A stretch of 5,312 nucleotides of DNA from a virus. Lineage: Duplodnaviria > Heunggongvirae > Uroviricota > Caudoviricetes. This document shows positions 125 through 5,312 of this stretch, piece after piece. Within the stretch, counting starts at the first letter, position 1. Every line of letters begins with the position of its first letter. The stretch is from the IMG/VR virus record IMGVR_UViG_2547132415_000018, one strand, 5' to 3'. The translations under genes and the position numbers were made by a program. The notes beneath the pieces are model-generated. The model was given only the letters and a program-made list of their open reading frames with translations, searched no databases and had not been told where the DNA came from.

Positions 125-144
125 TCATTTTCACGGAGGTTGCT

Positions 145-2286
145 ATGTCAACCGGATTACGTTTCACACTTGAAGTGGACGGCCTGCCACCGGACGCGTT
201 TGCGGTGGTTTCCTTTCATCTCACCCAGTCACTCTCTTCGCTCTTTTCCCTCGATCTCTCTCTGGTCAGCCAGCAGTTTCTCTCCCTTGAATTTGCGCAG
301 GTGCTGGACAAAATGGCCTACCTGACGGTATGGCAGGGCGATGAAGTACAGCGCCGGGTGAAAGGCGTGGTGACCTGGTTTGAACTCGGGGAGAACGACA
401 AAAACCAGATGCTGTACAGCATGAAGGTGCACCCGCCGCTGTGGCGTGCCGGTCTGCGCCAGAACTTCCGTATCTTCCAGAACGAGGACATCAAAAGCAT
501 CCTCGGCACGATGTTGCAGGAAAACGGGGTGACCGAATGGAGTCCGCTGTTCAGCGAGCCGCATCCTTCCCGTGAGTTTTGTGTCCAGTACGGTGAGACT
601 GATTACGATTTCCTGTGCCGGATGGCGGCGGAGGAAGGCATCTTCTTTTATGAGGAGCATGCTTACAAAAGTACCGACCAGAGCCTGGTGCTGTGCGACA
701 CAGTCCGCCATCTGCCCGAATCTTTTGAAATCCCATGGAACCCGAACACCCGTACCGAGGTGAGCACCCTCTGCATCAGCCAGTTCCGCTACAGCGCACA
801 AATCCGCCCTTCTTCCGTGGTGACCAAAGACTACACCTTTAAACGCCCCGGCTGGGCCGGACGTTTTGAACAGGAAGGCCAGCACCAGGACTACCAGCGC
901 ACGCAGTATGAAGTGTATGACTACCCCGGACGTTTCAAGGGTGCCCACGGGCAGAACTTTGCCCGCTGGCAGATGGACGGCTGGCGAAACAATGCAGAAA
1001 CCGCGCGGGGAATGAGCCGCTCGCCGGAGATATGGCCGGGACGGCGAATTGTGCTGACGGGGCATCCGCAGGCGAACCTGAACCGGGAATGGCAGGTGGT
1101 GGCAAGTGAACTGCACGGCGAGCAGCCGCAGGCGGTGCCGGGACGCAGGGGTTCAGGAACCACGCTGGATAACCATTTTGCGGTAATACCGGCAGACAGA
1201 ACATGGCGACCACAGCCGTTGCTGAAACCGCTGGTGGACGGCCCGCAGAGCGCCGTCGTGACGGGACCGGCAGGCGAGGAAATCTTCTGTGATGAACATG
1301 GCCGCGTGCGGGTGAAATTTAACTGGGACCGTTATAACCCGTCAAACCAGGACAGTTCATGCTGGATCCGTGTGGCACAGGCGTGGGCAGGCACCGGCTT
1401 TGGTAACCTGGCGATACCGCGTGTGGGTCAGGAGGTGATTGTGGACTTCCTCAACGGCGACCCGGACCAGCCGATCATTATGGGGCGTACCTACCACCAG
1501 GAAAACCGCACCCCCGGCAGCCTGCCGGGGACGAAGACGCAGATGACGATCCGCTCGAAAACCTATAAGGGCAGCGGGTTTAATGAACTGAAGTTTGACG
1601 ATGCGACAGGGAAAGAACAGGTCTACATCCACGCGCAGAAGAACATGAACACCGAGGTGCTGAATAACCGCACCACTGATGTGATAAACAACCATGCCGA
1701 AAAAATAGGTAACAACCAGGCGATCACCGTTACCAATAACCAGATCCAGAACATTGGCGTTAATCAGATACAGACGGTTGGTGTCAACCAGGTGGAAACG
1801 GTGGGCAGTAACCAGATTATCAAAGTGGGATCAAACCAGGTTGAAAAGGTGGGGATCATTCGTGCGCTGACGGTGGGTGTGGCTTACCAGACGACGGTAG
1901 GCGGCATTATGAATACCTCGGTGGCGTTGTTGCAGTCCTCACAGGTAGGGCTGCATAAATCACTGATGGTGGGAATGGGCTACAGCGTCAATGTGGGGAA
2001 TAACGTCACCTTCTCGGTGGGCAAGACAATGAAGGAAAACACCGGACAAACAGCAGTTTATTCTGCCGGTGAGCATCTTGAACTCTGCTGTGGTAAGGCA
2101 AGGCTGGTGCTGACGAAGGACGGAAGCATATTTCTCAATGGTACGCACATTCATCTGGAAGGGGAGTCGGATGTGAACGGTGATGCGCCAGTGATTAACT
2201 GGAACTGTGGTGCCACACAACCTGTACCGGATGCGCCTGTGCCGAAAGATTTACCCCCCGGAATGCCGGATATGCGGCAATTTTGA
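145..2286 (+). CDS. vgrG: Type VI secretion system spike/tip protein VgrG (713 aa)
   Basis: ORF 109..2286 from the supplied track. I prefer the internal ATG at 145 (MSTGLRFTLEVDGL...) because GGAGG lies 5 nt upstream, whereas the 109 start adds 12 hydrophobic residues with no ribosome-binding site. The translation has the typical VgrG layout: a gp27-like N-terminal region, a central region (VKFNWDRY...GQEVIVDFLNGDPDQPIIMGRTYH), and a gp5-like beta-helix made of VxxNQ octapeptide repeats. Confidence 0.92.
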   Translation: MSTGLRFTLEVDGLPPDAFAVVSFHLTQSLSSLFSLDLSLVSQQFLSLEFAQVLDKMAYLTVWQGDEVQRRVKGVVTWFELGENDKNQMLYSMKVHPPLWRAGLRQNFRIFQNEDIKSILGTMLQENGVTEWSPLFSEPHPSREFCVQYGETDYDFLCRMAAEEGIFFYEEHAYKSTDQSLVLCDTVRHLPESFEIPWNPNTRTEVSTLCISQFRYSAQIRPSSVVTKDYTFKRPGWAGRFEQEGQHQDYQRTQYEVYDYPGRFKGAHGQNFARWQMDGWRNNAETARGMSRSPEIWPGRRIVLTGHPQANLNREWQVVASELHGEQPQAVPGRRGSGTTLDNHFAVIPADRTWRPQPLLKPLVDGPQSAVVTGPAGEEIFCDEHGRVRVKFNWDRYNPSNQDSSCWIRVAQAWAGTGFGNLAIPRVGQEVIVDFLNGDPDQPIIMGRTYHQENRTPGSLPGTKTQMTIRSKTYKGSGFNELKFDDATGKEQVYIHAQKNMNTEVLNNRTTDVINNHAEKIGNNQAITVTNNQIQNIGVNQIQTVGVNQVETVGSNQIIKVGSNQVEKVGIIRALTVGVAYQTTVGGIMNTSVALLQSSQVGLHKSLMVGMGYSVNVGNNVTFSVGKTMKENTGQTAVYSAGEHLELCCGKARLVLTKDGSIFLNGTHIHLEGESDVNGDAPVINWNCGATQPVPDAPVPKDLPPGMPDMRQF
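1708..1851 (+). repeat. Six tandem 24-bp units encoding the VgrG beta-helix octapeptide repeats (GNNQAITV, TNNQIQNI, GVNQIQTV, GVNQVETV, GSNQIIKV, GSNQVEKV)
   Basis: The 8-codon periodicity with a conserved N-Q at positions 3-4 and V/I at position 8 is visible in the translation and as a recurring AAYCAG in the DNA. This is a coding-sequence repeat inside vgrG, not an independent element. Confidence 0.7.
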
Positions 2287-2361
2287 GTCAGGTGCAAAAA
2301 ATTAAAACGGAACTGGTGCAGTGACCAGATAAACCATATTAAAAGCAGAAGGAATTGATTC

Positions 2362-2640
2362 ATGGGCGGAAAACCGGCGGCGCGGCAGGGTGATATGACC
2401 CGCAAGGGACTGGATATTGTGCAGGGTTCAGCGGGGGTGCTGATAGGTGCGCCGACGGGAGTGGCCTGTTCGGTATGTCCGGGAGGGATTACCTATGCTA
2501 ACCCGGTGAACCCGCTGCTGGGTGCGAAGGTGCTACCGGGCGAGACGGACCTTGCGCTGCCCGGCCCGCTGCCGTTTATTCTTTCCCGCGCCTACAGCAG
2601 CTACCGGACCAGAACACCCGCGCCGGTGGGGGTGTTTGGT
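2362..2640 (+). other. PAAR domain coding region at the N-terminus of the Rhs protein (approximate extent)
   Basis: A PAAR motif at residues 5-8 (KPAARQGD) followed by a Gly/Cys-rich stretch ([14 protein letters not shown]). The domain boundary is estimated by eye, not computed. Confidence 0.5.
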
Positions 2641-4542
2641 CCCGGCTGGAAAGCGCCCTTCGATATCCGCTTACAGATACGCGATGAAGGCCTGATACTC
2701 AACGACAACGGCGGCAGGAGCATTCACTTTGAGCCGCTGTTTCCCGGCGAGATAAGCTACAGCCGCAGCGAGTCACTCTGGCTGGCGCGGGGCGGGGTGG
2801 CGGAGCAGCACAGTTCGCAGCCGCTAAGCGCACTCTGGCAGGTGCTGCCGGAAGATGTTCGCCTGAGTCCGCATGTGTACCTGGCGACAAACAGCCTTAA
2901 GAGGCCGTGGTGGATACTCAGCTGGCCGGAGCGGGTGCCGGGGGCGGACGAGGTGCTGCCGCCGGAGCCGCCCGCATACCGGGTGCTGACGGGCGTGGTG
3001 GACGGCTTCGGGCGGACGCTGACTTTCCACCGGGCGGCGGAGGGTGACGTGGCGGGCGCGGTGACGGGGGTGACGGACGGCGCGGGCCGCTGTTTTCACC
3101 TGGTGCTGACCACACAGGCGCAGCGGGCGGAAGCCTTCCGTAAACAGCGCGCCACGTCTTTATCTTCCCCTGCCGGTCCCCGTTCTGCTTCCTCTTCTTC
3201 TGCTTTCCCCGACACGCTGCCCGCCGGTACAGAATACGGTGCCGATAACGGTATCCGGCTGGAGGCGGTGTGGCTGACACACGACCCGGCATACCCGGAT
3301 GAACAGCCGACTGCGCCGCTGGCGCGCTACCTCTATGACCCGCTGGGCCGCCGGACGGGAAAACGGGTATGGCGGCGGGAGCGTGACCTGACGGGGTGGA
3401 TGTCGCTGTCGCGTAAACCGGAGGAGACCTGGTACGGGTGGGACGGTGACAGGCTGACCACTGTACAGACCCAACAGACAAGAATCCAGACGGTATACCA
3501 GCCGGGAAGCTTCACGCCGCTCCTGAGAATCGAAACAGAGAATGGCGAACAGGCGAAGGCGCGGCACCGGAGCCTAGCGGAGGTGTTGCAGGAGGACACG
3601 GGGGTGACGCTTCCGGCGGAGCTGGCGGTGATGCTGGGGAGGCTGGAGCGGGAACTGCGTGCGGGAGCGGTGAGTGCGGAGAGTGAGGCATGGCTTGCGC
3701 AGTGCGGGCTGACGGTGGAGCAGATGGAAAGCCAGATGGAGGCGGAATACATCCCGGAGCGGAGGCTGCATCTTTACCACTGTGACCACCGGGGACTGCC
3801 GCAGGCGCTCATCAGCCCGGAAGGGGAAACGGCGTGGTGCGGGGAGTATGACGAGTGGGGGAACCAGCTTAATGAGGAGAACCCGCATCACCTGTACCAG
3901 CCGTACCGTTTGCCGGGGCAGCAGTATGATGAGGAGTCGGGACTGTATTACAACCGTCACCGGTACTACGATCCGTTGCAGGGGCGGTATATCACCCAGG
4001 ATCCGATAGGGTTGAAGGGGGGAATAAATCTATACACGTATCCACTGGCACCAATACGTTACACTGATCCACTGGGGTTAGAACGAGTTATAAGTGTATA
4101 TGGGCCTCCCGCTCCAGACCGGGCAGGTGCTGAAACTCCTCTTGTTCTTACTGATATGACTGGAGGAGTGACTATTTATTATGATCCTGAAACAGGTGAT
4201 TCAATGACTTTTGATAGTAGCAATAGAATTGATCGTCGTTCTCAACGTGGTGCTGGTGATCCATATACAGGTGAAGTCGTTGGTTGTGAGACAAATGAAT
4301 CAGGAATATCGGCAGCATATGGCACAACGAAGATCTATACTACAGATACTAGAGCAAGATGGCTACATGGTGGGGGATCATCGTTGCGCGATCCTTATGC
4401 TCCTCGACAAGGCTGGAAACCAACTATGGGATGTACCCGTGCACAGAATGAAGATGTAGATGAGTTGTGTAAGAAAGTGACAAGTTGGATGTATTCGCAT
4501 CCTGGAGAGAGAATTAGATATGAACGTTTTAAGACACGTTAA
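2362..4542 (+). CDS. PAAR-domain Rhs-family polymorphic toxin, 726 aa, apparently lacking most of the YD-repeat shell through an in-frame internal deletion; carries a C-terminal toxin domain
   Basis: The ATG at 2362 is preceded by GAAGGAA (2348-2354). The N-terminus ([12 protein letters not shown]...[14 protein letters not shown]...[20 protein letters not shown]) is the PAAR-containing N-terminal region typical of E. coli RhsA-like proteins. The C-terminal part (YLYDPLGRR...[14 protein letters not shown]...[45 protein letters not shown]) is the conserved end of the Rhs core. Canonical Rhs proteins are about 1400 aa, so a 726-aa protein with both ends must be missing the shell. Confidence 0.88.
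3331..4080 (+). other. Retained C-terminal part of the Rhs core (Rhs repeat-associated core region) ending in PxxxxDPxGL
   Basis: The segment begins right after the inferred deletion junction ([14 protein letters not shown]). DPIGL is encoded at 4000-4014 and the terminal [10 protein letters not shown] ends at 4080, which is where Rhs C-terminal toxin domains normally begin. Confidence 0.6.
4081..4539 (+). other. C-terminal toxin domain of the Rhs protein (residues 574-726), candidate YkuD-like L,D-transpeptidase-fold peptidoglycan-targeting toxin
   Basis: The sequence becomes AT-rich immediately after the DPLGL demarcation. Residues 667-702 read WLHGGG-x18[14 protein letters not shown], which resembles the H-G...(S/T)-x-G-C-x-R-x-x-N-x-D catalytic signature of YkuD-type L,D-transpeptidases. 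The family assignment is by eye only. Confidence 0.45.
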
Positions 4543-4738
4543 TGCGATTAACATGGGAGTGTGCATTCTAATTTTGGTTATTGGATGTGCAAATGCTAAA
4601 GTTCTTAAACGATGTATATTACCCGCTCCTGATGGTGGCGTAGAAAAACTATCAAAACCCAACTTACATGGAGTAATTAAAAAAGTTGATTTGAACACAA
4701 ATGAAGCGGAAATTAAAATAAAAGAGGGGGGGCAGTGA
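4520..4738 (+). CDS. Small predicted lipoprotein (72 aa), candidate cognate immunity protein
   Basis: The ATG at 4520 overlaps the last 23 nt of the rhs gene and is preceded by GGAGAGAG (4504-4511). The N-terminus [23 protein letters not shown] has a charged n-region, a hydrophobic core and a lipobox-like VIGC. Its position directly downstream of an Rhs toxin domain is the classic immunity-gene position. The alternative start at ATG 4553 lacks a good ribosome-binding site. Confidence 0.5.
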
Positions 4739-4911
4739 GTTTTATTTTTAATGAGGAAACATTGTATTTTACTGTTTTTGGTGGGGATTTTATTATGGAT
4801 GATTTAAAAAAAGTAAAAAATACGGAAGCATGGGTATGGTATAAAAATTGCGATAGTAAAAATAAAAATGTGGCAGTTGAACTTCTTCAAATCTACGAAT
4901 TGCATCAATGA
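4735..4911 (+). CDS. Hypothetical small protein (58 aa from GTG 4735; 38 aa if started at ATG 4795)
   Basis: The ORF is not in the supplied track because it starts with GTG. That GTG overlaps the stop of the upstream ORF (GTGA) and is preceded by the strong purine-rich AGAGGGGGGG (4722-4732). The AT-rich composition and small size make this a weak call. Confidence 0.25.
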   Translation: MSFIFNEETLYFTVFGGDFIMDDLKKVKNTEAWVWYKNCDSKNKNVAVELLQIYELHQ

Positions 4912-4951
4912 AAAATATAGTTAAATAGAGAAGGTTATTAATAGCAGGAAA

Positions 4952-4976
4952 AGCATCACGTGATGCTGATTTTTTG
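4952..4976 (+). terminator. Candidate rho-independent terminator (palindrome AGCATCAC/GTGATGCT followed by a T6 run)
   Basis: A perfect 8+8 inverted repeat at 4952-4967 is followed by GA then TTTTTT (4970-4975), downstream of the toxin, immunity and small-ORF cluster. The very short loop is a caveat; it could instead be a protein-binding palindrome. Confidence 0.4.
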
Positions 4977-5312
4977 CACTAAATAATTCGCATTTTATGT
5001 TTAAAAATTGAGATATTCCTTATTACCTAAAGCTGTTTTTTATTGCTTATACATGATCAAATACTCCTTACATAATTAAGGAGAACAAAATGGAACTTAA
5101 AAAATTGATGGAGCATATTTCTATTATCCCCGATTACAGACAAGCCTGGAAAGTGGAACATAAATTATCGGATATTCTACTGTTGACTATTTGTGCCGTT
5201 ATTTCTGGTGCAGAAGGTTGGGAAGATATAGAGGATTTTGGGGAAACACATCTCGATTTTTTGAAGCAATATGGTGATTTTGAAAATGGCATTCCTGTTC
5301 ACGATACCATTG
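4977..5312 (+). mobile_element. Probable left part of an H-repeat (ISAs1-family) insertion element; left boundary not determined
   Basis: Inferred only from the transposase gene at 5090 onward. I could not identify the terminal inverted repeat, so the start coordinate is a placeholder somewhere between 4912 and 5089. Confidence 0.3.
5090..5312 (+). CDS. ISAs1-family transposase (H-repeat-associated protein), N-terminal 74 codons only; the gene continues past the window end
   Basis: The ATG at 5090 is preceded by AAGGAG (5078-5083). The translation [74 protein letters not shown] matches, from memory, the N-terminus of E. coli H-repeat-associated proteins (YhhI/YdcC-type). There is no stop before the window edge. 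Confidence 0.85.

Follow-up and report, generated by a model that had tools for sequence, protein, structure and literature searches.

An internally deleted rhs gene at a decaying T6SS locus of Escherichia coli

The rhs gene analysed here encodes a 726-residue protein that lacks, in frame, the middle 685 residues of a full-length Rhs effector of 1,411 residues. It is very probably a non-functional remnant, a decaying allele that arose by a single microhomology-type deletion and happens to be in frame. We favor this reading because carriers of the allele have no firing apparatus at the locus and a broken immunity gene. We class the gene as a degenerate rhs allele, derived by deletion from the standard E. 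coli 'RHS element core protein'. It belongs to a known kind and is not a new type of effector, because the protein falls below the family cut-off and has no full barrel, intact immunity gene or linked working T6SS.

The window, meaning the whole stretch of DNA that was analysed, coincides with one contig, 5,312 bp long, from a draft assembly of E. coli (GCA_000354915.1, AQEI01000213.1; locus L014, identical sequence). Its features all lie on the + strand and comprise vgrG, rhs, two short ORFs and the start of an ISEc1 transposase gene. Slashes mark the deletion junction and the predicted cleavage point.

145-2286, +: vgrG (T6SS spike), 713 aa; Pfam Phage_GPD, Phage_base_V and Gp5_trimer_C; annotated VgrG in AR_0061
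2362-4542, +: internally deleted rhs, 726 aa plus stop, 685 codons fewer than the 1,411-aa allele
2362-2502, +: N-terminal PAAR-like segment, aa 1-47; weak Pfam PAAR_motif match; first residue of chain 8cp6_B (Tse5 shell) opposite residue 48 in the alignment; Tse5 domain map (PMC10684867)
2500-2730, +: N-terminal plug DUF6531, aa 47-123; Pfam PF20148, E 1.3e-18; N-plug in the Tse5 shell
2731-3330, +: remaining N-terminal barrel-region segment, aa 124-323; RHS_core profile up to position 322; 99.3% identical to L004, the EC21Z-014 locus
3325-3333, +: deletion junction CGC TAC / CTC (R322 Y323 / L324); microhomology TAC, or CGCTAC depending on the parent allele
3331-3846, +: remaining C-terminal barrel-region segment including a helical insertion, aa 324-495 (reference aa 1009-1180), from alignments
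3847-4080, +: C-terminal plug, Rhs-associated core domain with the predicted aspartyl autoprotease motif DPIGL-x18-DPLGL/E, aa 496-573; TIGR03696 E 3.3e-23; Pfam RHS E 2.6e-14; motif in the sequence
4081-4539, +: C-terminal toxin domain, aa 574-726, predicted L,D-transpeptidase (YkuD) fold, TxGCTR; Pfam YkuD below cut-off, family alignment, AF2 and Foldseek
4520-4911, +: cognate immunity gene, split into ORFs of 72 aa (4520-4738) and 58 aa (4735-4911); an intact 393-bp gene in L004, L002 and L017
4726-4732, +: G7 homopolymer (G8 in intact alleles), a 1-bp loss that frameshifts the immunity gene
5090-5312, +: start of the ISEc1 (ISAs1-family, 'H-repeat') transposase gene, cut off by the contig end

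A 2,055-bp in-frame deletion in one rhs gene

Our reference was the full-length rhs gene at the same locus of EC21Z-014 (L004 11229-15464; 4,236 bp; 1,411 aa; WP_254815517.1), which carries the same toxin. Window positions 134-3330 align to L004 9001-12197 and positions 3325-5312 to L004 14247-16235, with 99.3% (left) and 99.5% (right) DNA identity for the rhs flanks. Missing from the window gene are exactly 2,055 bp, or 685 codons, which encode reference residues 324-1008. In the 726-aa ORF, R322 is encoded by nt 3325-3327, Y323 by 3328-3330 and L324 by 3331-3333. A preliminary description of the window had already read the ORF as an in-frame internal deletion that joins an N-terminal region, near codons 322-326, to the end of the core with its DPxGL motif and to the toxin. 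Alignment to the EC21Z-014 allele and profile matches bear this out, placing the join at R322-Y323/L324 (nt 3325-3333) and 685 residues between the counterparts of residues 1-323 and 324-573. The lost segment, put at ~2.7 kb in that description, measures 2.06 kb against L004.

The loss is equally visible in family profiles. The full-length protein covers the whole NCBIfam RHS_core equivalog (NF041261, 1,261 positions) at 2,617 bits, whereas the window protein is matched in two separate stretches with 1,135 bits, below the curated cut-off of 2,000. YD_repeat_2x/TIGR01643 yields seven matches in the full-length protein and none in the window protein, and eight of ten strict Y[DN]xxG[RQN] motifs fall within the deleted part. 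In all, 685 of about 1,057 barrel-region residues are missing (~65%). The ~370 that survive, ~200 on the N-terminal side (aa 124-323) and ~170 on the C-terminal side (aa 324-495), contradict the earlier claim that the entire YD-repeat shell is gone.

The same deletion recurs in other assemblies. Among 5,426 complete genomes of E. coli, only AR_0061 (NZ_CP020058.1) and MDK9L1 (NZ_CP081333.1) match a 121-nt probe over the junction without a break, and the exact 726-aa protein (WP_063096364.1) is recorded on about 24 contigs. The carrier loci fetched number 11: the window, these two complete genomes and eight further loci from draft or metagenome contigs. All 11 contain a junction-spanning 20-mer that other alleles lack. 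Junction and flanking sequences are identical among the fetched carriers, and between the two complete genomes rhs hardly differs. Direct observation covers the deletion with its size, junction and single origin, as well as the other lesions in the carriers. About 24 assemblies share the open 726-codon frame unchanged and free of secondary stops; this intactness may reflect nothing more than recent common ancestry.

How the segment was lost is suggested by the break points, both of which lie at Arg-Tyr codons (on the left, PLARY/TYTASGEL). Against the closest parent the junction overlap is CGCTAC versus CGGTAC, a match at five of six bases that is perfect only at TAC; against a more distant core type it is six of six. 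An overlap of at least 6 nt would arise by chance with P ~0.003, and a 3-nt overlap is unremarkable. In the 30 nt to either side of the break points, matches are scattered and likeness is no greater than between unrelated sequences. The preliminary description had proposed recombination between YD repeats. Because the shared DNA is minimal (only CG[C/G]TAC) and the flanks are dissimilar, the sequences point instead to an illegitimate, microhomology-type deletion.

Two other accounts of the short gene have to be set against this deletion. One is that the gene is an artefact, produced when some 2 kb of repetitive YD-repeat DNA was collapsed during assembly, a concern raised in the preliminary description. 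The window is an entire draft contig bounded by repeats, and the 5' end of its vgrG looks chimeric: the 5' and 3' parts of this gene differ in origin, with window positions 1 to ~1460 best matching the yncH-linked vgrG of the rhsE locus and the sequence from ~1462 onward identical to the T6SS-locus vgrG. The rhs junction, however, is contiguous and identical in the AR_0061 and MDK9L1 chromosomes and in eight further fetched loci, and a match of 3-6 bases between the two sides falls well short of what a k-mer collapse needs. With the same junction in two complete genomes and about 24 draft contigs, a collapse is hardly conceivable. The other account holds that the gene belongs to a natural class of short Rhs, or that it recombined with a downstream orphan rhs fragment and did not undergo a simple deletion. 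Rhs loci do have orphan core fragments, which are known to recombine, and EC21Z-014 has a second rhs downstream of ISEc1. Yet a single uninterrupted full-length gene, which has the same toxin and immunity gene, matches both flanks at 99.3-99.5% identity. The orphan core downstream reaches no more than about 79% against the right flank, and the RHS_core profile is matched in two separated pieces. The chance that either version of this account is right is very slight indeed.

Domains kept by the shortened protein

Much of the parent's domain plan survives the deletion. The DUF6531 N-plug is present (PF20148, aa 47-123), as is the Rhs-associated core domain (TIGR03696, aa 496-573), which by its motif is a predicted autoprotease. 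The N-terminal 'PAAR loading domain' of the preliminary description fares less evenly. A literal P-A-A-R motif stands at aa 5-8 and the segment corresponds in position to Tse5-NT, whereas the Pfam PAAR_motif match is weak, at 14.8 bits against a cut-off of 27 and over profile positions 21-51 of 70. As a counterpoint to reading the gene as a remnant, the protein retains its two plugs, the DPxGL protease motif and an N-terminal segment of VgrG-binding type.

With ~65% of the beta-barrel gone, the window protein, if made, would be unable to enclose its toxin, and we infer a loss of function. An AF2 model of the whole 726 aa, built on a 39-sequence alignment from E. coli only, reaches a mean pLDDT of 32.9 and a pTM of 0.21. 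Even the toxin domain stays below pLDDT 50 in this model, as against 80.8 with its own alignment, and the model is uninformative on any mini-barrel. Helices are predicted at aa 405-458 in this low-confidence run.

The toxin comprises the last 153 residues and belongs to a small family with a TxGCTR motif. Modelled with its own alignment (pLDDT 80.8, pTM 0.77), it is predicted to adopt the YkuD (L,D-transpeptidase) fold. All of the top six Foldseek matches have this fold (5bmq, Csd6, two Bd1075 chains, YcbB and A. baumannii Ldt), and 5bmq and 4xzz are matched with probability 1.00 and a TM of about 0.5. Tlde1a (PDB 7uma) ranks tenth, at E 0.57. The Pfam YkuD profile falls just under its cut-off (E 3e-4; 21.8 bits versus 23.4). 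A sequence search of the toxin part against the PDB, by single sequence and by profile, gave no match; the profile reached only the homologue-derived DPxGL region.

Conservation across 17 homologues picks out a motif, H96-x18-T115-M116-G117-C118-T119, in which His96, Gly117 and Cys118 are invariant or nearly so. The Tlde1-type catalytic motif is HXX14-17-(S/T)HGCh (PMC9638812). The position of its second His is occupied by Met in the window toxin and is variable across the family.

Where it is intact, the immunity gene specifies a protein of 130 aa that begins with a signal of lipoprotein type (...LVIGC...). Such a signal agrees with a toxin that probably acts in the periplasm. Ten of the 11 carriers have the gene frameshifted by the change from G8 to G7. 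The remaining carrier, L012, retains G8, which suggests that the rhs deletion probably preceded the immunity frameshift.

The T6SS locus and the reading frame

The rhs locus is part of a T6SS cluster between ykfM/aspV and yafV of E. coli, with the order hcp-vgrG-rhs-immunity-ISEc1-yafV. In EC21Z-014 the cluster is intact and consists of hcp, vasL, tssM, tssA, vasI, tssH, tssL, tssK, tssJ, tagH, tssG, tssF, tssE, tssC and tssB, followed by hcp, vgrG, rhs, the immunity gene and ISEc1, with the second rhs downstream of ISEc1. In AR_0061 and MDK9L1, vasL and tssG are fused remnants. Alignment places a 13,384-bp deletion from vasL to tssG, in which tssM, tssA, vasI, tssH (clpV), tssL, tssK, tssJ and tagH are gone. 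The junction of this deletion occurs in all eight carriers with sufficient flank; the same eight have the nonsense codon Q62* in hcp, and three have a further hcp frameshift. A working T6SS linked to rhs at the locus is present in EC21Z-014 and absent in these eight carriers. The window, as a 5.3-kb contig, shares the rhs junction and the immunity frameshift with other carriers, and the region of the T6SS core lies beyond it. The T6SS locus of the carriers is decaying, with a core deletion, an hcp nonsense codon and, in most, an immunity frameshift.

Seven shortened alleles at this locus, all in complete genomes, had their frame over the junction read by tblastn. The frame is kept in two, the window allele and an 897-aa O157:H16 allele. 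It is changed in the other five: MIN11, 99COLEC, O157:H7, 2014C-4135 (with some 19 similar alleles) and APEC E19025, perhaps a derivative of the 2014C-4135 type. Two of seven is close to the one third given by chance, as expected without selection on the frame. The in-frame O157:H16 allele adjoins a tssG split by an IS66 element, and the out-of-frame MIN11 allele adjoins a truncated tssF. Shell deletions mapped at the locus in complete genomes measure 0.6 to 2.1 kb and are both in and out of frame.

Protein relatives add many further cases. Internal in-frame deletions occur in 59 of the best 120 relatives, at roughly 35-40 distinct junctions, though paralogues of differing length may account for some of the smaller 'deletions'. 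In these in-frame variants of related Rhs proteins the deletions span 72-875 aa (roughly 0.2-2.6 kb). Because protein databases record open frames only, the figure of 59 in 120 is biased towards in-frame events; it speaks for the frequency of such deletions and not for selection on them. On the evidence of these junctions, E. coli Rhs effectors have repeatedly become shorter by losing barrel turns in frame. A literature search turned up no specific account of internal core deletions that keep the frame in E. coli Rhs. The locus offers a well-defined natural set of shell deletions within a single Rhs gene, and it shows that the 'rearrangement hot spot' gene is itself prone to internal deletions, probably of the microhomology type.

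Function and likeness to known systems

A single event very probably accounts for the allele. One illegitimate deletion of 2,055 bp took out codons 324-1008 of a full-length PAAR-like Rhs effector gene; its size is by chance a multiple of three, leaving the 726-codon frame open. It took place once, in a lineage whose T6SS locus is decaying. The product, if made, would retain the PAAR-like segment, the N-plug, the C-terminal autoprotease plug and the L,D-transpeptidase-fold toxin, with nothing to enclose the toxin. By analogy with the Rhs of Enterobacter cloacae, it would not support secretion even given a firing apparatus. The toxin would be tolerated, its periplasmic target presumably out of reach for a cytoplasmic protein without a working secretion system.

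The role of the cage comes from work on other Rhs proteins. The PAAR part and the beta-cage of Rhs are needed for efficient T6SS assembly in E. cloacae, according to the summary in PMC10763514 of Donato et al. 2020 (PNAS 117:33540). The Rhs cage is regarded as protecting the producer cell, and in Tse5 the toxin is held within the shell (PMC10684867). The cage requirement is known from another species and from a different (prePAAR/TMD) class of Rhs. Of the two options in the preliminary description, the 'inactive remnant' agrees with the state of the carriers, in which the T6SS core is deleted, hcp is truncated and the immunity gene is frameshifted; the 'unusual shell-less effector' has gained no positive support.

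Such an effector nevertheless has to be considered in its strongest form. The in-frame product might work as a shell-less or 'mini-shell' effector or as a spike cap, with the PAAR-like end loading VgrG, the C-plug protease freeing the toxin and the frame under selection. Its frame is open and holds a PAAR-like segment, a DUF6531 plug, a TIGR03696 protease domain and a toxin, in-frame shell deletions are common in relatives (59 of the best 120, about 35-40 junctions), and a periplasm-acting toxin would need no cage for the sake of the producer's cytoplasm. But the carriers lack tssM, tssA, tssH, tssL, tssK and tssJ and have a truncated hcp, and their broken immunity gene would be dangerous if sister cells delivered the toxin. 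Moreover, in-frame alleles are not enriched (two of seven), the 59 in 120 are skewed to in-frame events by databases that hold open frames only, and the cage is described in the summary of the E. cloacae work as required for secretion. We regard a working effector under selection as highly unlikely.

A broader version of the idea has a slim chance at most: that some mini-Rhs, maybe the window protein too if given another T6SS, mount VgrG and either deliver an unencapsulated periplasm-acting toxin or cap the spike. If any in-frame mini-Rhs were secreted, this would bear directly on why the cage is needed; no data here suggest so. Read as a decayed allele, the gene has little biological weight. 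The practical consequence lies in annotation: RefSeq names the product an ordinary 'RHS repeat-associated core domain-containing protein', and catalogues of effectors in which ORFs of this kind are counted will credit strains with a dead T6SS with too many toxins.

A laboratory cage-defective Rhs of E. cloacae, of the prePAAR/TMD class, reportedly does not support secretion even with a working T6SS. Like the window protein with its putative VgrG-binding segment, it keeps the N-terminal VgrG-binding part while its beta-cage is not intact. The window protein differs in being a natural allele in a dead locus.

The full-length Rhs of EC21Z-014 (WP_254815517.1) has the same position, N-terminus, C-plug, toxin and immunity gene as the window allele. 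In contrast to it, the window allele is without aa 324-1008, scores under the family cut-off, yields no YD-repeat match and is followed by a frameshifted immunity gene. The closest solved structure to this full-length parent is P. aeruginosa Tse5 (RhsP1, PDB 8cp6; E 2.9e-122), which consists of a PAAR-like fragment (1-47), a DUF6531 N-plug (48-124), a barrel of 40 YD hairpins and a C-plug aspartyl protease (1092-1168), with the toxin inside (PMC10684867). The window protein is of this Tse5-like architecture class, with the N-plug from residue 48 and the protease motif DPIGL-x18-DPLGL where Tse5 has DPXGX19DPXG. Tse5, however, has an intact barrel and a pore-forming toxin, whereas the window protein has lost ~65% of its barrel and carries a toxin of predicted L,D-transpeptidase fold.

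With the Tlde1 family (Salmonella Tlde1a, 7uma) the toxin shares a predicted YkuD-type fold and conservation of a His and a Cys; in addition, a gene just downstream encodes an immunity protein predicted to be a periplasmic lipoprotein. Unlike Tlde1, it is fused to Rhs and not free-standing; the match to Tlde1a is weak, and the residue before G-C is Met (TMGC), not the motif His.

The degenerate rhs genes of MIN11, 99COLEC, O157:H7 and 2014C-4135 likewise have large core deletions at the same locus, often beside damaged T6SS genes. These are pseudogenes with a changed frame, whereas the window allele is in frame and annotated as an ordinary protein (WP_063096364.1).

Toxin, immunity gene and ISEc1

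The 3' end of rhs and the sequence that follows it in the window carry three features:

Window 4081-4539: Rhs toxin domain, from a small family that lacks an above-threshold Pfam match
Window 4520-4911: immunity gene directly after rhs, split into ORFs of 72 and 58 aa
Window 5090-5312: ISEc1 transposase gene (ISAs1 family, the classical Rhs "H-repeat"), within which the contig stops

The toxin family comprises about 15 homologues at 44–56% identity, mainly from metagenomes. The window domain is predicted with confidence to adopt an L,D-transpeptidase (YkuD) fold. A His and a Cys are invariant across the family; compared with the published catalytic motif of the T6SS effectors Tlde1, however, the window toxin domain lacks the second His. 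The window Rhs toxin is a candidate for peptidoglycan targeting.

The unbroken immunity gene encodes a 130-aa product with a lipoprotein-type signal (LVIGC). Loss of 1 bp in a G8 homopolymer (window 4726-4732) splits it, and the resulting G7 occurs in 10 of the 11 loci that share the rhs deletion junction (hereafter carriers), the intact G8 being found in one (L012). In complete genomes, ISEc1 lies between the rhs cassette and yafV.

Lesions of the secretion cluster in carriers

The T6SS cluster itself is damaged in carriers, as represented by strain AR_0061 (locus L001):

L001 2383-3838: 13,384-bp deletion producing a vasL-tssG fusion, also present in L005 and L007-L012

This deletion removes tssM, tssA, vasI, tssH, tssL, tssK, tssJ and tagH. 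Upstream of vgrG, hcp in carriers has the nonsense change Q62*, with an additional frameshift in three of them. Together, the vasL-tssG deletion and the hcp lesions are common to all carriers that could be checked.

The 5' end of the window has a different affinity. Over positions 1-1460, which take in the vgrG upstream region plus roughly 1.3 kb at the start of the gene, the best counterpart is the rhsE-locus vgrG linked to yncH (strain KE58, 98.6%) rather than the T6SS-locus copy, to which the window is identical from about nt 1462 onward. This yncH-type start is absent from all nine of the other carrier loci whose sequence extends into that stretch of vgrG. Either two vgrG genes have genuinely recombined here, or the draft contig is chimeric.

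Internal deletions in other Rhs proteins

Among the 120 closest relatives of the window Rhs, a list in which open frames are over-represented and which draws partly on draft assemblies, 59 have in-frame internal deletions of 72–875 residues. These comprise roughly 35–40 distinct junctions, several of which lie at YD-type motifs (e.g., YDEAGRL|AEKTD and ADN|RIAED). At the chromosomal locus of the window rhs, the other shortened allele that stays in frame is that of E. coli O157:H16 Res13-Lact-PEA12-26 (locus L021):

L021 8048-11837: in-frame shortened rhs allele (897 aa) and the adjoining tssG

This allele is present on ~20 contigs, and the tssG adjoining it in L021 is split by an IS66-family element (ISCro1).

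One relative from another E. coli strain, P0017 (654 aa), begins with the VgrG start (residues 1-22, MSTGLRFTLEVDGLPPDAFAVV), joined to Rhs at residue ~47, which implies a deletion joining vgrG to rhs in that strain. P0017 also has a second shell deletion.
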